A stretch of 61,334 bases of DNA, the filler included, from Rhizaria sp. SCN 62-66 (Eukaryota): the NCBI GenBank assembly GCA_001724265.1. It is 3 parts of 3 records of this genome, joined end to end, with 100 filler letters (N's around TTAATTAATTAA, not from the genome) between each part and the next. Parts side by side here need not be neighbours in the genome. Positions count along the whole stretch, not along the records: positions 44,132 to 61,334 come from MEDY01000484.1; 2 more parts are not named here. One strand, given 5' to 3'. The notes under the pieces are model-generated. The model saw only the letters and a program-made list of their open reading frames with translations. It did not search any database and was not told the DNA's origin. Made by a program: the position numbers and the translations under genes. Position 1 is the stretch's first letter. Each line of letters begins with the position of its first letter. Shown piece by piece: positions 18,874 to 59,790 of this stretch.

Positions 18874-18973
18874 NNNNNNNNNNNNNNNNNNNNNNNNNNN
18901 NNNNNNNNNNNNNNNNNTTAATTAATTAANNNNNNNNNNNNNNNNNNNNNNNNNNNNNNNNNNNNNNNNNNNN
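18874..18973. other. Artificial contig/scaffold linker (44 N + TTAATTAATTAA + 44 N)
   Basis: Exactly 100 nt with a palindromic all-frame-stop core at 18918-18929; identical in structure to the linker at 44032-44131. Confidence 0.97.
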
Positions 18974-18976
18974 CCC

Positions 18977-21635
18977 GTGTGTTGGTTGCAAGATGCTGAG
19001 TTCATGCAAGGTTTGTCTGTTTACTCGTGCGTCTTTATCTCTGATGTATGGGCACGTCACTTGGAGCATCTTGTTGCGTCGTATCCGTCGAGACTTAAGT
19101 ATGGTGGCGATAGCCAAGACAACGACAGTCGACGACCTGGCCGCAATTTGTCCATCCAGTCAGGTCTTGCCACGTACCGCAACAGCATTATGATTGATAC
19201 TAAGAGCGAACTTAGCTTTTTGCTTCCATTTTCGAATGATACAGTCCGCAGCAGCCTTATTTCGATGTCCCGGGCCGCGCAGTTCGAGGCCGTGGCAACA
19301 CTACTGCAGCACGGCACGGTGCTATCGGACATGTTCGACTGTACCGCCATCTTAGGCACCGAGTGCGCTCTTCTTTGGGGCCTTGAGCCACAGTCTTTGG
19401 TGGGCGATACGTCAGATCGACGGGACGGGCAGTCTGAGTCTGCAACCACTGACTGCAACCCGGGCCCGTGGGAACTTTTCTCGGGTGACGCACTCCTGAG
19501 CGTGCCAGGCACTGTCGGTCACGCGCGCGCTGCGCGCATGCTGCGCATGGTGCTGATGTGGCCTTGCCTTCCGCGCAGATATCGACTGTTCTTGCCGCCA
19601 AATGACGCAAAAAGTCTCCGGCACGGCTCTTCTGGTCTTGCTTCCTCTGGCGACGGCGCAGCGATGAGCGACTTCGGGGACCTGCGCACTCTTGGTCGTG
19701 CTGACAATGAGCCAACGCAAGACCCGTTTCCTGCTGATGCAGCTGGATTGGCATCTACCACTGGATCTGGCGGCCCCGCCTTTGACCCACTAGTTCACTG
19801 GGACCCGATTCGTGCGAAGGCTGCACTGCGCCGCTCTCTTGCTGCAAAATTCGACTTCGCGCTGGTGGGGACTTTAGTGACTGCTATTTCCTCCGGCGCG
19901 CTCGAAGAGGACTTTGCTGAGGTGCTGGAGCCATACGCTGAACGCGCGCTGACGTTCCTGAACCCTGAGACTGCCCACTGCTGGGCGTTGCCGGCGCGCT
20001 TCATGTGCGTCGTCACGCGCCTTGGACTTGGGCACGCGAGGGTCAAGGTAGGAGAGAATGATACAGAAAACACGGCCAGCAACAATCGCGGCAAAACAGC
20101 AAACATATTTTGTGTTGAGAATCCTGCTATGGTGTCGACGTTTGGAATCATGCAATTCCTCTCGACGGCTAAGCTGCTATCACTTCACAAATCGACGACA
20201 AATGCTTCATCTGGCGGTAACACGAGCACCTCTACTGAACCAGTGATCGACGATAGCTGCCACGTACGCTGCCGCCGTCGAGCCTGTGCGCGACACGCTT
20301 GCAGCACTGCCTTCTATCATTGCAGCTTATGACGCACGGGTTGCCCGGCTTATTACACGCCTTTGTGGTGCCATCGAGAGCTTCAACAACAGCATAAAGG
20401 AAAACAGTAATGATAGCGGCAGCATGGAAAATCAAGTGCCACATCAATTTTTCTCGACTCTTGAGCTGTTGCAGCAACACCAGCGTCAGAAGCCGCGTCT
20501 AAAGTCTGTGCCACCGCTGTCTGCCTCGTTTGAGTGGGGGTTGTCTGTTGGCGCGCCGCTCACGGTCGCTGCGTGTTGCCGTCACGGCCTGCTGGCCAAC
20601 CTGGGGCACCACGTGCTCGTCGCTTTCATTATGGGCCATGGCACGCACAAGCCCCTGGACCCGCACACAGTGCCCTATCTGCTTCCGCCACGCTCTGGCA
20701 CCTGGGGCGCCGACAACAGCACGGCCGCAGGGCGGCGCGCCGTGGCCCGCGCCCTCGAGACGCTGCTCGTGGCGGCGACGAAGCTGGAGCTTTTCCGTAT
20801 TTTCACCACAGATGGCTCGCTGCTTCCGTGGCTGCCGCCACTGACACTGCTCGACGCGCTGTGTGTGACCGCCAATGCGGCCGCCGTCGAAGTCGTGCTT
20901 GCGGCCTACCGTCGGGCCACCGAGGGACTGGCGACGCCGCGTGCGGTGTTCTGCGCGCGCATGGCGTACTACGCGCTGCTCACGGGTGCTGTTGCGTCGC
21001 TGTCTGTTGCGCACAGCGCGCACGACGTTCTTGCCACAGCGCGGCTCCTGCTTGCGGCGCTGCGTCCATGCGCAGACTCCTGCACCCGCTGCGCGCAGGC
21101 GCGTTGCATCATCTACGAGGCGCCCGTTAAACGTGACGCAAAATACGCGCTGCCACTGCAGCGGCTGCTGCCGAGTGCGTACGGCCAGCTGGGACTCGCG
21201 GCGCACGCGCTGGTGGGGGGTCACGCCGCGGTGGGTTTTTTCACCGTGATGACGGACCCGCAGCGGCACCGCGCGTGGCTGTGGACGCTGCGCCAGGGCG
21301 TGCGCGCGGGCTTTGTGCAGTGGCGCGATGTCACGGACGACAAGCGCGCCAGTGAGCATGCAGCTGGAAAGAGCGCTGACGCGCAGCGTATGACTGATGA
21401 ACCGGCAGCGGAGCGAGAGCAAAAGCGTGCTGATGAACGGAGCCTGGAGCTCGTATTTGTGCGGGCCGCGACGAACTGGCCCTCGTGTTTTGATCGGCCA
21501 GACGTGGACAGGGGTGACGCCTACATCGGACTGAGTGCAACAGCGCTGAGGCGCGGACTGGCGGCGCTGCGGGCCTTCGTGGGCGAATGCGACGATGATG
21601 AGGTCATTGATGAGGAGAATGTCGACACCAAGTGA
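18977..21635 (+). CDS. 5'-truncated hypothetical protein with a frame change near 20245-20290 (ORFs 18977-20332 and 20286-21635)
   Basis: Two long overlapping ORFs (451 and 449 aa) with protein-like composition; the first starts at the gap edge and the second ends in TGA. No domain recognised. Confidence 0.55.
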
Positions 21636-22096: not shown

Positions 22097-22169
22097 TGTC
22101 CAATGCGGGGATCGAACCCGCGACCTTGGGATTATGAGACCCACGCTCTACCAACTGAGCCAACTAGAC
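22097..22169 (-). tRNA. tRNA-Met(CAT), elongator type, intronless
   Basis: Minus strand reads GTCTAGTTGGCTCAGTTGGTAGAGCGTGGGTCTCATAATCCCAAGGTCGCGGGTTCGATCCCCGCATTGGACA (73 nt). It has acceptor stem GTCTAGT/ATTGGAC, D-arm GCTC/GAGC, anticodon loop CT-CAT-AA with a T31:T39 pair, and a T-loop starting TTCGA (not the initiator ATCG). Confidence 0.95.
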
Positions 22170-22684: not shown

Positions 22685-25600
22685 ATGAACCCTTCATCAC
22701 ATGGTGGTGACTCCTCACTACTTGCGACTTTTCCCGCTGCATTTCGCGCTGCCGCAGTCACAACTGCTGCTCCTGCATCAACTATTGCTGCGCCCGTCGC
22801 TGCGCCGACTGTCTCTGCGCCTGTTGCTGCAAGAATGCAGTCCTACGGCCCGTCGCCCGCGCTTTTCGCCGCCAGCGCGCCCACGCTGATGCTCTCCACA
22901 TCGGCCTCTTCCGCATCGTCCTCCTCGTCGTTTGCTGCGACTGCGGCGCCCGCGCCTGCGACTGCTGCTGCGACCGCCGCATCTCCTGCTGTCCCGGGCG
23001 CTCCATCTGCCACTGTGACGCTCTCGGGCTTTACCGCCGTCCCTGTCGCCGTGCCCCCGTCTTCCACGGGCGCCGCCGCGCTGCCCGCGGGCGCCGTCGC
23101 AGCGCCCGGCCTGTCTACTCAGGGTCTATCCACTGGAGGCGTGCCCACCGGAGACCTGCCCACGGGAGGCCTGTACACTGGGGTCCTGCCCTCCAATGGG
23201 GGCTTGCCCTCCTCTGGGGGCTTGCCCGCGGGGGCCGTTGTGACGACGGCGGCGGACGGCTCGGGCCGCCGCGTGATGCTCGTGCGTACCGTGGTCAAGC
23301 GGCGCGTGCCCAAGGCCGAGGCCGCGCTCATCCGCCAGCGCCAGGAGGTCGAGCGACAGGCCGCCGCAGCCGCCTCAGCCGCCGCCGCCGCCGCCGCAGC
23401 CGCAGCCGTCGCATCTGGCGCTGCGGGCGCTGGCAACGCCAGCGTCAGCGCTGCTGCTGTTGTCCCTGCTGCTGCTGCTGCTGCTGCCGCTGGTGCTGGT
23501 GCTGGAGCCGGCGGCCCCGGCGGCCCCGGCGGCGGCTTCGGGCTGCGGTCGGTGCCGGAGGCCACTGCGGAGGAAGAGGACTAGCACGATCACCTCCACG
23601 ACGATGACAACGACGCGTACGACAGAGATCACGAACACGACCCCGAGCAGGATGTAGGGAGCGTGCACGGCAGAGCGCAGGAGCAGCAGCTTCACATTGA
23701 GTTCGATCTGACGGATTCTAAAACTAACAATGCAAACACTCTCGCCACTGGCAGAAACACGGCAAGCGCGCCGAACACAACTGCTGCCGCCGCCGCCGCC
23801 GCCGCCGCCGCTGCTGACGCTGTGCTGTCCCCGGTGGCGGCCCCGTCGCCGGCCCTGGCGCCCGACGTGTTCGTGACCCACGGCGACCACCGGCGCCACG
23901 CGCGTAGCCTCGGGGCCGCAAACGCGCAGCCCAGCCTGGACGCGGACACGGAAGAGTACGCGGACGCCACAGCTGCAGCTCCTGCTCCCGCTGCTGAAAG
24001 CAGTGGCCGCGGGCGCGAGCGCGAGCGCGCATCTCCCCGTGACGCGGCCTACTATCCCAGCGCGGCTTACTTTCCCGACGCGACGGCGGAGGCCCTGGTG
24101 CCCGAGACGGCGGCCGCGCTGGCCAAAGACAAGGATGCGCCTGCCAAGGACGCGCACGCCGCGTACCTGCAGGAGTCGTTTCACTTCCTCACGCAGCCGC
24201 TGGGCGCCGTGGGCGGCCGCCGCCGCAGCGCGACCCCCGCCGCAGCGGCCGCCGCTGCTGCTGCGAGCGCCACGGCCGCGGCGACGACGGCCTCGAACCA
24301 GTATGTTTCGTTCGGCGGCTCTGCGGCGGCGGGGTCCGCGCCCGGCTCAGCCCGCGGAGCGACACCCCCGGTCCCGGCCGTCTTTAACGGCGCCAAAGTG
24401 CTGTCTGTGCCACAGGGGCAGGGGCCGGGGCCGGTGACGCCGGGCGCGGGCCGTTCGCACTCGCAACAGCGGCGCGGCGGCGGCGGCGGCGGCGGCGCGC
24501 AGGGGCAGTCAATGCAGCAACAGCAGCAACAGCAGCAACAACAGCAGTTGCAGCTGCAGGCTCAGTCGCAGTCGCCGCCGCGGCCGCGGGTCTCGTTCGC
24601 CCCCGCTGGCACCGCCGCAGCCGACGCCGGCGCAGGCGCAGGCGCAGCGCCTGCCTCGGCGGCCTCGCTCGCCCACAGTGCTGCGCAGCCCGGCGCCGCT
24701 GACACGCAGACCGGCCTGCAAGCTGGCGCGCAGACCGGCGGTGCGCGGACCGGTGACCTGCCCGCGTCGCCGAGCGTGCTGCGCGTGACCTTCCGCCGCC
24801 CCTCGGCCTCGTCTCTCGCATCGTTTGCCTCGGACGCGCACGGCATGGACGGCAGCGACAACAACTTCGCCAGAGCGCTCGCCGCGGCCGCGGAGGACGG
24901 CGGGATCGAGCTGGCTGTGCGCAAAAGTAACAACGCCGGCAGCGCGGCCGCGGCGGCTGAGGCGGCTTCTGCGACCGTCGCGCCGATGCTCGCGGCGGAC
25001 GAGAGCTTCGACAACTCGTTCGACGCGCACTTCCTCCATGCCGGCGGCCAGCCCACCGGTGCCCCCGGCGCGGCCGCGGCCCCCGGTGCGGCTGCTGTCT
25101 CCGCGACGACGGCGCAAAGCGCGCACTCGCACAGCGCGCACTCGCAACGGCTGAGGCTGCCGCTGCACGCGCACGCCGGGATTGGCTTTGACGCCAGCAT
25201 CGGCGGCCGCTCCGCCAGCAACGGCGACGGCGACGGCGGTGATGACAGCGCGGGCATCGATGCGAGCGCGCTCAGCAGCTCGAGCCACAGCGCTCTCCAC
25301 AGCCTCGGCGACACGCTCGCGCTCGACACGACGATGACGGCCGCGACGCTTGCGCGGTTCGCCGCGGCCCCCGGTCACCCCGCCGCTGCGGCGGCGGCTG
25401 CGGCTGGGCCGGGGACTGGGCCGGCTGCAGGGACTTCCGCGACAGTGGGCTTGCCCTCGCGGCGGCTGGGCGGCTACGGCTACGGCCACAGCGTTGGTGA
25501 CAGGCACGGCCACGGCCGCGGCGGCGGCGGCGACGGCGACGGCGGCGGCCGAGGCCACGGCGATGATCACGACGACGGCGACGACGGCGTCAGCGACAGC

Positions 25601-28600
25601 GAAAGAGACCGCCACAGCGACGGCGTCGACTCGGCCGCCTCCGCTGTCAACTCGGCCTCGGCTTCCGTCGTCGCCGCAGCGAATGTCTCAGCCGAAGCCG
25701 CCGCGGCCGCGGCCGCCACTGCAGCCGCAGCAGCAGCGGCCTCGGGATCACCGCTGTCTCCAGCTGCGGCGCCTGTCATCGTCACCGTGTCTGGCAAGTT
25801 GCAGCCTCGCGCGGCTGACGCGTCGTCCGTGGCCTCGCCGACCGCTGTGACGAACGCCGGCAAGCCAGACTCGCCGGACGCCGCCAACGGGCCGCCGCGG
25901 CGCGGGCGCCAGAACAGCTTCAACTACGACATGGGCCTCGGCTTCGGCGGCTTCGGCGGCGGTGGCAGCGGCGTCGGCCTGAGTCTGCAGCCCTTTGCCG
26001 CCGCCGCCCCGGCCGCGACTCCCGCCGCCGCTGCGACGGGCGCGTTCAACTTCTTTGGGCCCGCGATCCCCGCCTCGTCCTCGGCCTCCTTCTACCCTCC
26101 GGGCGTCGGCGCCGGCGCGAGCGCCTCGCTGGCCCCCTCGATCACGGGCTCCAACTCCTCCTCCCTGGGCTCGTCCTCCGCGTCCTCCGCGCCCGTCTCC
26201 GCCTTCGCCTCCGCCGGCGCGTCCGGGGCCTTCGCCGCTGCGCCCGCGACGGCCGCCGCAACTGCTGCGGCCGCGGCGGCGCTGTCGAGCATGTCGGCGG
26301 CGGCCGCGGGCGGGCTGGCGCTGTCGCCGCAGGACGTGCTGCTGCGTGCGCTCTTCAGTGGCGACGCGGCGACTGTGGCCGCCGTGCTCGACTCGTATGC
26401 CACGGCCGACGCCTTCCCGCCGCCGCCGCCGCCGCCGCCGCCCGCGGCCGAGGACGACGACGACGCTGAGGCCGCGCGCGCGGGCGGCGCTGACTGGGCC
26501 GCGCGCCGCCGGCTCTCCACTGCCTCCACCTCGTCGGCGTCCTTCACCTCGGCGACGGCGGCCGCGGCGGCAGCAGATGCAGCTGCAGCGGCACGCGCAG
26601 GCGCTCGCGCGGCACCGCGTGGCGGCCGCGGCCTTCGCGGCCTCGACGTCGCCGCCGCTGCGCACGCTGGCCGCCTTCTCGTGGCCCGCGCTCTTCTTTG
26701 CCTCGTGCAAGATCGAACGCAAGCTGCCCGTTGCGCGCCTCGCGCTGCAGCGCGGCGCAGACGCCAACGCGCGCGACCCCCGCGCCGGCTCCTCCGCGCT
26801 TGCGCTTGCGGTGCAGTTTGGCCCCCGCGCCGGCGCGCGCGCGCTGCTGTGGGAGGCAGGCGCGGACCCGCGCGTGGGCGGCGACGTCTTCAACTGCCTC
26901 CAGCAGGCTTGTCTGCGCGGCAACGTTGACTTCTTGCTCGACTGCTGCGCCGACACGGACGCAGACATCGACTCCGACGAAATCGCCGTGGTCCCCGCAC
27001 CGCTCTCTCACTCGTCCGCTGGCCCCGGCGCCGCGAGTGACAGCGACTTCACGTCAGCCGCCGCCGTCGCGATGAGCGCGATGAGCGCGGCGGGCGGCCG
27101 TGAGTCGGCGCTGGCGGCGTTTCTCGCGCACCCGCGCGTGCGGTGGCTGAGCGCCGCGCCCAGTTGCGCCAGCACGCCCGCAGCGCCGCGCAGCGCGCTC
27201 GCCGACGCGGAGGCCGGCGTCGTCGCCGCCAAGCGCGCGCTCCTCGCGCGCGGACTCGCGCTGCGCTCGCCCTTCGTGGTCGGGTTGGAGGGCGACCCCG
27301 CGTCCGCGGCCGGAGACGGCGGCCCCTTAGACGCGGGTAAGGGCCCCGCGGACTATGACGCGGACGACGCCTACGACGAGCTGGGCATGTCCATCTGGTA
27401 CCAGCTGTTGGGCGTGCGGGTGGCGCCGCTGCGCCGCACCTTCGTTCCGCTGACGTACACGGGCCCGCTCGCGGACCTCGTCGCACCCGCGTTGGCGACC
27501 CTCGCGGCAGGCAGCAGCGCCGGCAGCGGCAGCGCGAGTGCGAGCGCCGCGGGGACGGCGAGCGGGGAGTCGCTGGGCCTGGCGCGGCAGGCCTCCTCCG
27601 TCTCCGGTCTCTCGACCACGGCGGGTCTGTCGGGCACCGCCGGGCTGGGCCACGCGCGGCGCAACAGCCAGACGGCGTACCTGCCTCCGCACGGACACGC
27701 GCACCACGGTCACCACCACGGCCACCACGGCCAACAGCAGCAGCATGCGCCGCCGCCGCTGCCGCCGCTGCCGCACCTGCTGCCGCCCGCCGCGCTGCGC
27801 CTGGCCGCGGCGGGGCTGGTGCCGCGCCCGCGCGCATTCGCGCTGTCGGTCCGCTCGCCGTACGGCCCGCTGCTGTCGTTCGCCCTCGCCATGGGACTGC
27901 ACGACGCGCTCGTCGCGATGCTGCGCGTCCTCGCCACGGCGCCGCTGGCCGCCAGCCCGCTCTACCGCCGCGCGCTGCGGGCGCGCGCGGAGGCCGAGGC
28001 CGGCGGCGGCGGTGGCGGCGGCGGCAGCAACAACAACAGCGTCGGCGACAGCGCCGCGAACGCTCTGAGCCGCATTAGCAGCAGCAGCGCCGTTGGCATT
28101 AGCAACAGCAACAGCAGCAGCAGCAGTAACAATGGCGCGCGTGCGGAGGAGGCGCTGGGCGACATTGCGCACCTGCGGGGGCGGCTTAACTTTGCACCCG
28201 ACGACGACGCGGCGCGGCTGCTGCTCTCCTGCCTGCTGCACGCGCCCGCGGCCGTCACGCGCACGCCCTCATCCGCGTTCCACGGCGGCGGCGGCGGCGC
28301 GCCGGGCGAGGGCTGGGTGGCAGAGCAGCTGCAGCAGCAGCGCGGGCTGCTGTACCAGGTCGCCGCGGGGCCCGAGTTCCCCCACCAGGCCGCGCTGCTG
28401 CGGCTCCTCGCCGCCGCCGGCGCCGATGTCGACGGGCGCGGGCCCAGACGCACGCAGTCCGCTCTCGCGCAAAGCCGCTCCGGCGGCGCGGACGCGACGG
28501 GGCTGGCGGGCGCGATGCTCGTGGAGCGCCGCCGCGTGCCTGCCGCGCGCGTGCGGCGCCGCGTGCGCGGCTCGGGGCTGCTCGCGACGGCCGCCGCGGT

Positions 28601-44031: not shown

Positions 44032-44131
44032 NNNNNNNNNNNNNNNNNNNNNNNNNNNNNNNNNNNNNNNNNNNNTTAATTAATTAANNNNNNNNNNNNN
44101 NNNNNNNNNNNNNNNNNNNNNNNNNNNNNNN
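44032..44131. other. Artificial contig/scaffold linker (44 N + TTAATTAATTAA + 44 N)
   Basis: Exactly 100 nt; RPS8 does not resume after it. Confidence 0.97.
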
Positions 44132-52580: not shown

Positions 52581-53349
52581 TGGAGCTTCAAGCCGACGCA
52601 AAAACAACGCAGTAGAGTGGTTGGCGCGTTAGACGAGGTCTTTATGGCGCTGTTGTTCGGGTTGGGGGCACGGCGCGTGCTCTGCTTCGAGGAGAGAGCT
52701 GTTGGAGGCGCGCGAGCAGCAACAAGGAGTGTTGCCCTGAGGGAAAGCTGCGGGCTGTCAGAGCGCGGTCAGCAGTAAGAGCAAACGTGCGTGCAGGTAG
52801 TTGCGCGGGTGGGTGCGGTGGCTAGAAAGGAGATACGGCGGGAGACAAGGAACGTGAGATGAGAGGTGGACACGAGCCAAATCAAGAGGAAAAAAGGGGG
52901 ATTAAGAAAACAGGCATACATGATCACCAGCTCGACTGTTTGGACATTGTTCAGCGATAAAACGAGAATGTGTTGCAATATATACTATATCGGATATATA
53001 CACAATTTGACGATTATTTTAGTGTCGAGCAGCTCAGTTTAATGAATGCAAACGGGGAGGCAACCAACGTGTCGTTTCTGATTCGAGTTTTTCAGAACCG
53101 GCGTGGCGGGATGAGACAACGGAAGAAACCGCTGATCTTTTAGTGCACATAGAGCCTTCAAAAATCTGTCAGTATCTCTGTTGACCCACATAACAGTAAA
53201 ATAATAGCGTGGCTAATATTATTCAAATTGCAATATCTGTACTGTATGTATATACATGCTCATACTCTCTGTCTCCAATCGCCCATTTCCCCAGTCCTCT
53301 TCGCTCTCTCACACCTGCCAGACCGAGTCACAGCAACCTCATCGCATCC

Positions 53350-56300
53350 ATGAGCACCTACCCCGCGCCTGGCGGTGGTGGCGACGCTCTGCCGTCTCTG
53401 ACGGACAGCCGGCGCATGATCTCCGCGCTCGACAGCCTGACGCTGCAGCGCTCCCGCGGCGGCCCCGCCCCTGCGCCCCCTTCGTCGCTGCATCCTTCGG
53501 CCACCACCGGCGCGGTGGCCTCCAGCTCCGCGCAGTACTCCGGCCAGGGCCTGCATTCCACCCCATCCAAGTCCGCGCTCTCCCGCTCCGCGCACTCGAT
53601 CCTCGGGACCGGCGGCGCCGCCTCTACCTCGCAGGCGGTGCAATCCCCGCGTTTGCCATTCCCGACGTTGCCCAGCAACACAAACGCCGGGCTCAGCAAG
53701 ACGCAGTCGCTGCTCGCGTCCCCACACTCGCTCGGCGTTTCGCACGGGCCCGCGCTTCCAGCGGCGTCGCCTGGCTACGTGGCCGCGAACAGCGCGGGCG
53801 CATCAGCCGCCGCCGCAGCCTCTGGCTCTGGCTCCGTCTCGAGCTCTAGCAGTGCTGCAGGCTTCGTGACTGCTGCTAGTGTGGAGCGCCGCTTGGGCGC
53901 GGTGCGCGAGCTGCAGCTGCTGCAGGAGGAGAACGCGACGCTGCGCGTGCAGGCGCGCCGCATGACCGAAGAGCACCAACGGCAGAAGCACGGCCAGGCC
54001 GAGCTGTGCGCGCGACACGACTCGCTGCAGCAGCACTACCAGTCGTCGCAGGCGCTCGTGGCGGCACTGCAGGCCGAAAGCGCCAAGTCGCGGCGCGAGC
54101 TGGCGCTGCTGCTGTCATCCTCGGCGCAGGGCCAGCGCATCACCGAGCTTGAGGCCGAGGTGGCCCGGCTTAAGGCCGAGACGGCGAGACTCAAGGATAA
54201 GGTCGACGAAGAGCGCGCCGGCGCCGAGAAGGTGCAGGGCCGCATGGCACAGCTCGACGAGGTTGCGGCGCGCGCCCTGCGTGAGCTGGCCGTCTCCGAG
54301 CGGCTGCGCACCGAGGCCAAGGACAAGGCCAAGATTGCCGCGTTGCAGGCGAACCTGAGCCGCGCCTAGGTGAGTGAGACCGAGAGCAGCGAGCGCGTGG
54401 CCGAGCTCAGGAAGCAGGTGCTGCGCGCTGTCGAGCAGTTTGAAACGACCGAGACGGAGCGCATTAGCACGCTTACGCTCAAGTACGTGCAAGACCAGCA
54501 CTCCGCGTCGCTGGAGAGCGACAACCTGACCGCGCTGCGCACCAAAGTGCGCGAGCTGGTGCAGCAGCTCACCATCACCTCGGCCTCACACATGCGCGCT
54601 GCGCACATGATCATCTCACTTCGCGAGCGCGTCACGGAGCTGGAGAACAACAACGCCGAGCTGGCCGCTAGCGTCACCGTCGCTGAGAAGGGCCGCGCCG
54701 CCGCGCAGCAGACGGCCGAGTCGTTCCGCGACGCGCACAGCACCGAGGCACAGCGCGCGGCCGCGCTCGAGGCCGCCGCCAAGGCCGCAGGCACTGAGTC
54801 GCGCCAGAACGACGCCGGCGCCGCCTTCTACCGCGACCAGCTGCAGCTGCTCACGGCGCGCGTCGCTCCCGCCGAGGCCACGCTCGCGGAGGCCAGGCAG
54901 GCGGCGGCTGCGGCCGCGGAGCACGCTACTGCGGCTGAGGCCAAGGCCGACCTCGTGGGCCGCGAGCTAGCTGCAGCGCGTGCGGCCACTGAGACGGTCG
55001 AGAGGGACCGCCAGGCTGCGGCACAAGTACGTAGACCAATGTTAGACCAATGTTATGTTTTTTATGCATTTTTCAACATGTTTGCTATGATTTACCTTGT
55101 TTCACAATATATTGCCGATATGTTATCATTCGTTTTATCTTAATTTGTCTTCAATTGTTTTCTCTAGGCTGCATCTGCGGCCCTCGCTGCTGCTAACGAG
55201 AGCGAGCGCAAGCGCGAGCGCACTGACCGTGAGCTCGTCTCGGCGCGCACCGAGATCGACGCTCTCAAGGCCGCCGTGGCGTCACACATCGCGGCCCGCA
55301 GCGAGCTTGTGCTTAAGCTCACCTCTAGCTCCAGCTCCAGCTCCAGTTCCAACGCAAGCACGGATACTCCCGCGAATGCTATTAATGGCAGCGGTGTCGC
55401 TGTGACCGCTGACGGCATTGCGCGGATGCAGCATGAGCACCAGCAGCAGCTCGCAGCCGTCCGCAGCACAGTCACAGAGCTCCAGGCCGAGCTTTTCTCC
55501 CGCGAGGCCTCGCTGGCTGCCGCATCCGCTGATGTGGCCGCCGTTAACGACGAGTGTGCCGAGCTCACCCGCGACCTCGCCACTGCGCACGCGCTGGTTG
55601 CTGACTTACGGGCCGCAGTGCGAGCCAAGGACAGGCTGATTGCGTCGCTGCCCAAGCCGCCGCCGACGCGGCCGTCGTTTGCACTGCGTCCCAACAACAC
55701 CACTGCGAAGAACGCGAGCAACAACAACAACAACAGTAATAACAACGCGGCTAATATCGGCTCGAGTGCCGCCAACATGGAGGCAGCCGCGGCCGCGGCT
55801 GCGACGGCGGCAGACGAGGCTCTGCATAACCACTTGGCGCAGGAGCGTGACAAACGCGCCCGACTGCGCGCCGCGCTGCGGTCGCTCGAGCCTCTGTTTG
55901 CGGCGACGACTGCGCGCGTTGCCGCTGCTGCCGCCTCCGCAGCGTCAACATCCGCCTCTGCTGCGAGCAGCTCCGACCTGCCGCAGTCGCAGCTTCAGCA
56001 GCAACAACAGCACCAAGAGCCTCCTGCGGTGTCCGCCGCTGCTTCCGCCGCCGCCGCACTGCGCTCCTTCATGGCGGCTCTGGACCAGGAGCGGGCTCGC
56101 CACCGCGACCTCTCGGTCGTCGGTCGCCTTATCCACGGCCTGCTAACCCACGTCACGGCCGCGCTCGACGCTGCCGCCGCCGCCGCGGGCGCCGGAGCGG
56201 ACACCGGGGCGAAGCTCGCCGCGGCCGAGCGCGGGGAGGCGCGCGCTCAGGAGCAGTTGGCGCTCGTGATGGGCGAGCTGCGGGCCGCTGCGTCGGGCGC

Positions 56301-59300
56301 GGCGAGCGCAAACGAGCGCGTGAGTGCGCTCACGCTCAAGCTGCGCGCTGCCGAGGCCGAGGCCGCCGCCGCGAGCAATGCCATCACAAGCACTAGTGCG
56401 AACACGAGCACTGCTAGTAACACTGCGAGTGGTGTCGTGGCGAAGCACTCTCTCGCCGAAGCAAGCGCGCGCGTGTCGCAGCTTACCACCGAGCTCTTGG
56501 CGTCGCAGCACAGCCATCGCGCCGCCGCCGCCGAGGCTGCCGCTCTGCGCGCCAAGCACGCGGCCTTGCTTAAGGAGCACGCCGCGGCCTTCACCGAGAC
56601 CGCCGCGCTTAAGACGGCGCTGGCCCAGGCCAAGGCCGACCTGCGTCTGCTGCCGGCGACCGCGGACCGGCTCCGCGCGCTGCTGCTGACGGAGCAGGCG
56701 CACAAGGCGCTGGCGGGCACCGAGGTGGCGTCGCTCAAGACGCAGCTCAGACACCTGCGCGCGATGCACGGCAAGAGCAACGGCAGCGACGACGCCAGTG
56801 TCGGCGGCGCTAGCGTCGCCGCGACGGCGTCAGGCTCGGTCTCCGCGGGCGGCCTGGTGAGCCCTGCCGAGGAGGTCGACGTGCTGCTCAGTGGCTCCGG
56901 CACCGTGGCGCAGGCCGTCGCGTCTCTGCTCTCAACGCTGATGACGGCTGCTGCGACCGCAACGGCTCCCGCTGCCGCAGCGAGTACGCTCGCTGCTCCC
57001 TCTACTGCAAGCGATGGATCCGCTGCGAATAGCAGCAGCCACAGCGGCGCCAGCGGCAGCGGCGGTGCTGACTGCGACAACGCCGCGACTGCAGCGGCCA
57101 TCGACGCCGCGTCAGCTCGCGTGCGCACCATCGCCCGCGCGATCGACTCGTTCTTGATCTCGGTCTCCACGGTCGAGCGCGACTGCCCGCAGCTTGCGTC
57201 GCTCACGCGCGCACTCGCCGGACTGGCCACCTACGTCAGGGCCGTGCCGGACGCCGAGGCCGTCACGCTGGACAGTCTGGTGACCGCGACGGCTGCGCTT
57301 GACAAGGCCAGCGCTGCTGCGACTGCGGCCGCCACGGCCAACGACGCCGCTGCCGCGATCAGCAACAGCTCGAACAGCAACTCCGACGACGCGAGTAGCG
57401 GAACTGGCTCAACCATGAACGCTCTTGTGCTCTCGGGCTTGAACAGCAAGCGCGCAGGTGTTGCTGGCGCGACTGGCCTTGTCGTCTCGCCGGTCAACAT
57501 CTTGTCAGCGACTGCAGATTCATTGCTTGCACTCGCTGCCGGTCTACCTCTATCCGTTGATTCTCTCAATAACAGCAGCACAAACTCGAGCTCCAGCGCC
57601 AATGCGAGCAGCGGCAGCGTGACTGCGAATGGCGGTGATATCAGCGCGACCGAGGGCGCTTCGCTGCGCCCGCTGCCGCCGCGTCCCACCGCGGCCGTGC
57701 TGACTCAGGTCGCAGCGCTGTTGCGTCGCGTACGTGACGTGTTTGCGGGCCTCGACGCAGTGTCTGCAGCGACGCGCGCGTGCGCCAACCAGCTCAACGC
57801 GCCTTGCTCTCAAACCAGTACCGGCAGCTTGAGCGCTGTGGTTTTAGTGGGCGCGAGGAGCGCTGGCAACGCGGCGACTGCGTTTAGCATGACGAAGGCG
57901 ACTGCAGAGGACCCGTCTCTGGCGCCCGCGTCTCTCGCCACCGCCGTCACCGCCGCGGGCCGCACGTATCCCAGTGTGCTCCCGCTCGCCGGCGCCATTA
58001 GTGCGCTGTCTGCACGCGTGGGCGACACGGTGCACGTGGTGAGCGCGCTGACCACTGCGCTGCAGCCCTTTACCTCAGGCTCCGGGGCCCTTACATTAGC
58101 ATCGACTGCAAGCAGTGACTCGAGCTCATCTGCTGCGACCAGCGCGCTTGCCAGTCTGCGCACCAACACCCTCCACACGCTGGCGCAGCGTTCCGCTATC
58201 ACGGCGCCGCTTCTGCAGTCCCTCGACAGCGTGCTCGGGCACTACCAGCACTCGCACGACACGGCCTCGCGCGTCGCAGCGGCCGCCCGGTCTGCGACTG
58301 CCGCCATGCAGCGGGACATGACTGTCAGCAGCCACAGCGCCCTTGCGCCGGCCAACGGGAAGTCTTCGAGCACCGGCAGTAACGGCCACGCAAGCAACGA
58401 CGCCGACGCCGCAGCGATTGCTCTCGCGACGGGACTCAACACGTTCCTCTCGACTCTCAACAGCAACAACAACTGCGCGATTGCTACCACAAGCAGCGAT
58501 CCATTGATGTCGACCCTGACGAGCTTCGGCTATCTCTGCTCCGACACTGTCTCTGTCGCCCGTGCTGGTGCGCTTGTTGCTCTCGAGCTGCGTCGCTTGG
58601 ACGCAGCTGCCGCCAGCGTCGCCACGCTCGCAAACAGCACCGAGAACTGGGCAGTGCACTACTCTGCAACCGCGTCTGCTGCCCCGAGTAGCTCCACTGC
58701 TGCAGCCACGTTGCTGCAGTCGCAGACCGCGGCCTTCAACGCCGCCGTGACCAACATCTCCGCGACTCTGCGCCAGGTTGCGTCCGCATCTGCTCTGGCG
58801 CCCACGCTCCTGCCGCTTGCCACGACTCTCCTGTCTGCAGTCTCCACGATTCAAACGCTGCAGTCGGCGCTTGCGCGCGCCCCCACAGCGGCCGCCGCCT
58901 CTGCCGCGGCCGCTGCGGTTGCTGCCGCCGAGGCTGAAGCAGTGAGACTCCGACGCCGGCTGCGGTACGGCGGAGCAGCGGGTGCGGCAGCGGTGGCGGC
59001 GCGCCAGGGCCTAGTGCGCTACCTGGGCGCGTCGTTCGCGCCTGCTGTCGACTACCACCAGCAACAGCAGCAGCTCGCTCGCCTGAACCCAGCGTCCGCA
59101 GACGCGAACACAGACGGTAGCAACGCAGGCCCCACTGAGTCATCGCGGGCGTTGGTAGTCATCTCCCGCCTCGCGGCCGACGGGCCGCTGGAGCTGGCCG
59201 GCGCTCGCGAGGGCGACACGGTTCTCGCAGTGGAGACCACTACCGTGGCCGGTCTGGAGGACCTGCAGACTGCGTTCGACGCGCACTGTCACGTCGGCCG

Positions 59301-59790
59301 CTCCGTCGCCGTGCTGCTGCGGCGCGCGGCGGCCGGTGGGCGCGGCGAGACGCTCGTGCCCGTTGTCGTCAAGGTCGGCGCGCAGGGGCTGTCGCCGCGC
59401 GCTACGACCGCCGTGCTTACGCTCGCGCGCGCCGAGGGGACCGACTGGGCTGCCGCCGAGGCCGCGGTCACGGCCGCGACCGCCGCGTCGAGCCAGGACG
59501 CGCCCAACGCGGCGGCCGCGGTCGCGGTGGACTGGGAGGCGGTGGCGCGCGACAAGGACTGCGCGGCGCTCTGGCGCGACACGGTCGAGCGTGGTGCCGT
59601 GGAGGAGCTGTGGGACGAAACGGCCGGCGTGAGCGATGACGAGGACGACGCGCGCGCTGGCGACAAGGGCGCGCGAAAGGGCAAGGGCAGGGGCCACAGG
59701 GATCACGGGGGCAGTGATGAAGATGAGGATGAGGACGAGGATGAAGATTATCACGGCAGCAAGAGCGACGCTCACGACGATGATGACTAA
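53350..59790 (+). CDS. Large coiled-coil protein with C-terminal PDZ-like domain (about 2099 aa if TAG 54367-54369 is read through); exons 53350-55026 and 55168-59790
   Basis: ORFs 53209-54369 and 54370-55143 abut in one frame across a single TAG. An AT-rich intron 55027-55167 (GTACGT..CTAG) joins in frame to ORF 55276-59790. PDZ-like segment: YLGASF...VVISRLAADGPLELAGAREGDTVLAV...GRSVAVLLRR. Acidic tail; ends in TAA. Confidence 0.72.

Follow-up and report, generated by a model that had tools for sequence, protein, structure and literature searches.

Probable use of UAG as a glutamate codon, with UAA and UGA as stops, in the nuclear genome of a putative cercozoan

The stretch of DNA analysed here (61,334 nucleotides, referred to as the window) contains an in-frame TAG within a long protein-coding gene, and the combined data from the genome suggest that UAG specifies glutamate in a nuclear variant code that retains UAA and UGA as stops. 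The probability of such a full reassignment is placed at about three in four. We infer the decoding of UAG, the charging of its tRNA and the order of events from features of the DNA, namely in-frame TAGs, gene ends poor in TAG, a gene for a tRNA with a CUA anticodon and changes in the release factor eRF1. Within the open literature searched, a code in which UAG means Glu while UAA and UGA terminate appears to be undescribed. The window stems from a eukaryote with GC-rich DNA whose AT-rich introns measure ~140 nt or more; its assembly (G000) comprises 34.9 Mb in 714 contigs, and the runs that contain G000 sequence come from metagenomes of bioreactors, wastewater and the like. Standard-code annotation cuts short genes of this wastewater organism, the gene for eRF1 included.

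The interrupted gene in the window

Translation from the ATG at 53350 (+) runs into a TAG at codon 340 (54367-54369), reproducing the context CGC GCC TAG GTG AGT GAG given in the initial annotation. The next in-frame ATG, described there as more than 70 codons away, is located 75 codons downstream (54592). Past the TAG the frame stays open up to a predicted spliceosomal GT..AG intron of 141 nt (55027-55167, +, phase 0, GC 0.29) and proceeds in phase into the second exon (55168-59790, +; 1,540 codons and a terminal TAA at 59788-59790), so that the clean splice into a 4.6-kb exon is recovered as well. Together with the first exon (53350-55026, +; 559 codons), the gene amounts to 559 + 1,540 = 2,099 codons. 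Sequence on either side of the TAG is coding-like (GC 0.71 and 0.62), a T-rich acceptor tract is absent from the 430 nt 3' of it, and nothing intron-like is found nearby. When the 350 six-frame stops of the window that are flanked on both sides by 40 open codons were ranked for how coding-like the two flanks are, the TAG at 54367 came first and a second one, at 23582, came eleventh. The TAG at 54367 is real, marks no intron edge and splits a gene of 2,099 codons.

A sense codon in the reads had been named as an observation that would speak against the TAG. A contig of run X3, from an independent study (P2, distinct from P1, the possible source study), shows TAG and covers 53000-54666 with 0 letters differing from the window. 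Contigs of runs X4 and X5 and of RNA run X6 have no long piece at 54367 and carry no weight either way; those of X6 leave 54328-54578 uncovered, and the intron at 55027-55167 is predicted from sequence. Runs X4 and X6, from another study, also contain a second strain, ~97-99% identical over 53000-57500, whose contigs miss the TAG.

The first exon encodes a low-complexity N-terminus followed by a helical region that includes the TAG, with no Pfam family above cut-off. The designation as a PDZ-domain gene holds in part: a PDZ-like segment is discernible at 59152-59325 (+), but its match to PDZ_2 (E 0.001) reaches 19.7 bits against a Pfam cut-off of 27. Similarly, the long helical, coiled-coil-like region is apparent, but the heptad position of the TAG varies by register: over 85 residues, the best one places it at "a" and the second best at "e". 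The coiled-coil argument for a polar residue is thus register-dependent and cannot fix the residue. A polar residue (Q/E/K) as opposed to Leu or Trp is instead backed genome-wide, where conserved columns and the tRNA narrow it to Glu (see below). Given the code proposed for the genome, codon 340 is most likely a sense codon for Glu, and the best reading of the window gene would be a single protein of ~2,099 amino acids with Glu at position 340.

The second in-frame TAG of the window (23582-23584, +) is found within acidic sequence, close to the beginning of a gene with ankyrin repeats, and its earlier description as another case of the same pattern is borne out by the genome-wide evidence. The ankyrin-repeat gene shifts frame at 26600-26730 (+) in the absence of an AT-rich intron, with ankyrin-like text on both sides; this change may reflect an indel in the assembly, a short intron of high GC content or a genuine frameshift. 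Elsewhere in the window, two overlapping lower-GC ORFs devoid of Pfam matches (18926-21635, +) adjoin a scaffold gap, and a tRNA-Met gene is located at 22097-22169 (-). The N gaps span 18874-18973 and 44032-44131.

TAG within genes, at gene ends and in conserved columns

For a set unselected for TAG, 142 Pkinase matches were inspected. Stops occurred in 14 of these, nine with only TAG and five with TAA or TGA. All five of the latter extend into AT-rich, intron-like sequence; four of the nine TAGs are intron acceptors and five are inside exons, TAG thus making up 5/5 of the in-exon stops. A Markov scan covering 921,244 bases of the organism's own sequence (839,613 distinct 31-mers, ~0.84 of 34.9 Mb) over loci partly chosen for TAG, and hence TAG-enriched as a sample, returned 32 read-through-like stops: 31 TAG, one TAA and no TGA. 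The sole TAA (L057:1551, -) is located in a Q-rich stretch directly 5' of an ATG and would be either a nonsense allele or the boundary between two adjacent genes. Single ORFs can carry several TAGs and no other stop, as seen for a Cdc25-like ORF (4 TAG in 1,333 codons) and a helicase ORF (4 in 1,095).

Overall, TAG is rare, at roughly 1 to 2 per 10,000 codons. The window holds 2 in ~13,600 codons, and the dyneins 0 in 34,993 codons against 2,226 GAG/GAA, a result counted against the reassignment. Among the kinesin (54), myosin (6), DEAD (43), SNF2 (25), HSP90 (5) and dynein matches read, exon-internal TAG was absent, and the TAGs encountered were acceptors or intronic; one HSP90 row with one TGA, kinesin rows with TAA/TGA only and some mixed-stop rows were left out of this reading. 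The 32 UCH matches include two true in-frame TAG sites, both residue-uninformative. Pattern searches for in-frame TAG gave 488, 27 and 0 matches; 22 were read fully and ~3 found to be true, most being antisense or Ser-repeat artefacts, and the Q-rich contexts from such matches were dropped for this reason. A lower-GC ORF of 1,198 codons (L078 and L203, G000:C681) with an internal repeat, a ubiquitin-like domain and two TAGs may belong to a mobile or viral element.

At gene ends the distribution is reversed. Gene-end-like stops comprised 78 TAA, 55 TGA and 7 TAG before strict filtering. With tighter score cut-offs and stops just after a donor word removed, 94 strict ends were retained (TAA 55, TGA 38, TAG 1). 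The lone TAG end (L059) is doubtful, with an in-frame TGA 17 codons later, and was counted against the reassignment. Within this sample of ~0.84 Mb out of 34.9 Mb, UAA and UGA are thus kept as stops and UAG is near-absent from gene ends, as in nuclear codes that reassign UAG only. The commonest +4 base at true stops is G (62/93).

In-frame UAG occurs at conserved positions of intact genes (eRF1, ADA2, Cdc25 and kinases), which allows the residue to be addressed. The eRF1 column of human E107, TAG here, contains E in 106, D in 10, V in 1 and Q in 0 of 117 homologues. At the ADA2 site the 147 aligned sequences (150 hits) show E 144, D 2, V 1 and Q 0. The in-domain TAG of the Cdc25-like protein faces E in 4/4 alignments shown, all of them to human paralogues; deep alignments back the eRF1 and ADA2 columns, and the Cdc25 column rests on these human paralogues. 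In deeply conserved columns TAG aligns to E and never to Q, L or W. A kinase hinge TAG (L246) corresponds to E in 14, D in 3 and P in 1 of 18 own kinases. Three observations were counted against Glu: the nearest solved kinases have S (KSR) or Q (TNNI3K) at this hinge position, NEK1 has Q at one TAG site in a column that is variable among own kinases, and a ubiquitin-like copy has TAG where its own paralogues have Q. Sites in CaMK (Y/K), USP5 (C) and loci L057 and L058 (variable columns) are uninformative about the residue, and the homologue search for one further TAG site returned no match.

A flanking-residue test over 36 TAG sites was rejected as residue evidence. The classifier performed well on controls (GAA called E in 171/200 sets, CAA called Q in 200/200), and the TAG value (E minus Q = -1.6) fell outside both the pure-E (median +44) and the pure-Q controls (-55 and -83), supporting neither. 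A score between the two would suit a young codon derived from GAG as well as from CAG, and lends no support to Glu.

The release factor and the tRNA with a CUA anticodon

The organism has a single eRF1 gene (L073:1117-1827, -), the other candidate locus reading as pelota. It shows strong codon bias (GC3 0.89) and an internal TAG followed by A, which is repeated in a separate assembly (L082, 100% over 1,626 nt). Compared with 117 homologues, eRF1 carries T32S (T in 117/117), G57S (G in 117/117) and T58K (T in 116/117). Altered stop-recognition motifs of this kind would be in line with a UAG-only code. The available portions of PMC5304391 and PMC9161772 describe T32 as contacting the G of UAG and as altered in Iotanema, whose standard-code relatives keep it, and T32A is lethal in yeast eRF1 according to an excerpt of PMC4381064. 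A relative (P0004) with an 84% identical eRF1 has T58K in common and keeps T32 and G57. The TAG within the eRF1 gene is possibly a means of self-regulation (see below).

Other eRF1 genes were encountered in metagenomes (L095, L096, L100, L101, L103). Two contain in-frame TAA/TAG, as in ciliate-like codes, and three shift frame just 3' of the NIKS motif, as in Euplotes.

A tRNA with a CUA anticodon is called by ARAGORN and alignment at G000:C84:76008-76080. It was the one such gene found by pattern search (63 of 506 tRNA candidates were scored) and is embedded among ordinary GC-rich nuclear genes of its contig, with a T run after it; a search of viral contigs for the same tRNA was negative. Within the tRNA types recovered from the organism, its identity is highest to Glu(CTC) (0.64), followed by Glu(TTC) (0.54), Gln(CTG) (0.45) and Gln(TTG) (0.39); nine tRNA-Glu genes were found by a relaxed pattern. 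With Glu(CTC) it has acceptor pairs one to five and the T stem in common, and it lacks the G1-C72 pair and U73 of the organism's own tRNA-Gln. The variable loop is short, and identity to own Leu tRNAs is 0.43-0.44. Folding by free energy does not yield a clean cloverleaf (z -1.53), so that the call relies on ARAGORN and alignment. Going from CUC to CUA takes one base change, and CUA is expected not to pair with UAA, as stated in the available part of PMC11687900. In E. coli, C36 belongs to the identity bases for Glu, and amber tRNAs tend to be Gln-charged (PMC9976931, in part). As CUA loses C36 and E. coli GlnRS is attracted by such anticodons, Gln or mixed charging is possible. One GluRS and one GlnRS were found, both with 0 in-frame TAGs in the parts read.

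These features are consistent with a course in which TAG would first have dropped out of use as a stop, with eRF1 losing or weakening its recognition of UAG. A copy of tRNA-Glu(CUC) would then have gained a C36-to-A change, yielding a CUA anticodon that pairs with UAG and not UAA. Codons one substitution away, GAG and CAG among them, could subsequently give rise to new TAGs, which would be retained wherever the protein accepts Glu. The rarity of TAG is as expected of a young or costly codon with one detected tRNA gene.

Alternative readings, related codes and host lineage

The alternative that survives best, albeit unlikely, is an ambiguous intermediate in which a suppressor tRNA decodes part of the UAGs as Glu and eRF1 recognises part of them as stops. 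The very rare and uneven use of TAG (none in the dynein codons, four in each of two regulatory genes), the single tRNA(CUA) gene and the one possible TAG gene end are compatible with it, and T32S would retain the hydroxyl group. Yet genes with four TAGs would lose most of their product at a sizeable termination rate, TAG occupies 1/94 gene ends, and the +4 base of the window TAG is G, the one most common at true stops.

Under such an intermediate the TAG in the eRF1 gene could provide negative feedback, more eRF1 leading to more truncated eRF1. Plants have a read-through-based autoregulation of eRF1, by another route (PMC5397192, available section). Against a need for any function, the chance of a TAG in a 437-codon gene at ~2 per 10,000 is an estimated ~8%. 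A genome caught in mid-reassignment, with UAG read as Glu, partly seen by the modified eRF1, and the UAG at a conserved Glu of eRF1 serving as a feedback switch for the strength of termination, seems a little less probable still. Bacterial RF2 regulates itself, and the switch, if true, would be a eukaryotic counterpart.

More doubtful than either is UAG as Gln, as in Iotanema, Hartmannula and Trochilia, or as a Glu/Gln mix through charging of the CUA tRNA by GlnRS. Q aligns at the three variable sites noted above (NEK1, TNNI3K and the ubiquitin-like copy), certain TAGs are found in Q-rich tracts (L173, L041, L159), and the attraction of E. coli GlnRS to amber anticodons (the same portion of PMC9976931) points the same way. 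The two deep columns (Q in 0/117 and 0/147) and the Glu-like body of the tRNA argue against Gln, and Q-like contexts would be expected anyway from CAG-to-TAG transitions.

A standard code combined with mRNA repair (U-to-C giving CAG, A-to-I giving UGG) or cryptic splicing is highly improbable. The donor-like word GTGAGT directly follows the window TAG, but a donor 3' of the TAG would keep the stop in the exon, and in-frame GT donors upstream would excise GC-rich coding sequence unlike real introns. Editing would yield Q or W where homologues have E, and leaves the tRNA(CUA) and the TAG-poor gene ends unexplained. Errors in the assembly or pseudogenes with nonsense mutations, for which the metagenomic origin of the assembly, the frame change near 26600-26730 and the read-through-like TAA (L057) could be quoted, are equally improbable and largely refuted by the recurrence of the window TAG in an independent study and of the eRF1 TAG in a separate assembly, by TAG being 31/32 of internal stops, and by the single eRF1 gene that would otherwise be dead. 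Even jointly, editing, splicing and error account for a very small share of the probability.

For UAG as Glu, the comparison with known codes is based on the available portions of PMC11687900, PMC5304391, PMC10553269, PMC10089648 and PMC9161772. As far as these go, UAA and UAG are almost always reassigned together, and the few exceptions that keep UAA as stop use Leu, Gln or Ser (PMC11687900). Nuclear UAG-only codes comprise those of the rhizarian exLh (Leu) and Iotanema spirale (Gln; both PMC5304391), phyllopharyngean ciliates (Leu, Gln), Protocruzia (Gln) and Scotinosphaera (Ser; all PMC11687900). The present genome resembles this class in its sense UAG with UAA and UGA as stops, shares a CUA tRNA with two ciliate MAGs of the class, and differs in the proposed Glu, which these portions do not give for the class, and in the great rarity of the codon. 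Its eRF1 GTS motif is changed at T32 as in Iotanema, to S instead of G, and L69 is kept, unlike in exLh (L69A). An exLh-type code is at odds with E, not Leu, in the TAG columns and with a tRNA(CUA) devoid of a long variable arm. An Iotanema-type code has Q at the three variable sites on its side, and is contradicted by the absence of Q from the two deep columns and by the Glu-like tRNA.

In the literature covered, UAG as Glu occurs only in codes that also reassign UAA. In the ciliate Oligohymenophorea sp. PL0344, UAG is Glu, UAA is Lys, UGA is the sole stop, and 10 CUA genes are closest to tRNA-Glu (PMC10553269, in part); here TAA is the main stop (55/94), a single CUA gene was detected, and gene structure together with the HSP90 tree indicates a non-ciliate. 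Peritrich ciliates and Blastocrithidia likewise read UAG as Glu but reassign UAA alongside it (UAR is Glu in both; in Blastocrithidia UGA is also Trp, its code being given in the available text of PMC12153298 and PMC5304391), whereas 1/32 read-through-like stops is TAA and 0 are TGA in the present genome. A sense UAA, common to all three, is not compatible with TAA as the commonest gene end here.

If correct, UAG as Glu with two stops would add a nuclear code, and in a non-ciliate. Low codon use, a tRNA traceable to tRNA-Glu(CUC) and a relative (P0004) with T32 and G57 in eRF1 make the genome a good test case for codon capture versus an ambiguous intermediate.

The host is probably a cercozoan. 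In an HSP90 FastTree of 35 sequences and 363 columns, sampled thinly from top hits, the organism belongs to a long-branch clade of environmental sequences inside a group that contains Mataza (0.977), next to Lapot and Leptophrys (0.994) and separate from the dinoflagellates, plants and fish in the tree. Two library sequences in this group, which bear the labels Euplotes and Ploeotia, may be contaminants. Branch length, a very divergent 18S and habitat lead us to guess at a position near Sainouroidea, the home of exLh; should the host be cercozoan kin of exLh, UAG would have been captured on two occasions within one group, each time by a different tRNA. Cercozoa are marked by an insertion at the polyubiquitin junction and a two-residue insertion in ribosomal protein L1 (PMC6133090, in part). 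No polyubiquitin junction is present in the ubiquitin loci read, and two candidate matches to cytosolic L1 stop at contig edges. The 18S rRNA gene (L051:1501-5945) is very divergent, AT-rich and 4.4 kb long with four Rfam group I intron matches; it is located on a small contig assumed to be from the same organism. Ubiquitin itself (L076, L079, L080, L249, L250) is divergent, with two extra residues at the N-terminal start, and is encoded by single-unit genes and L40 fusions.
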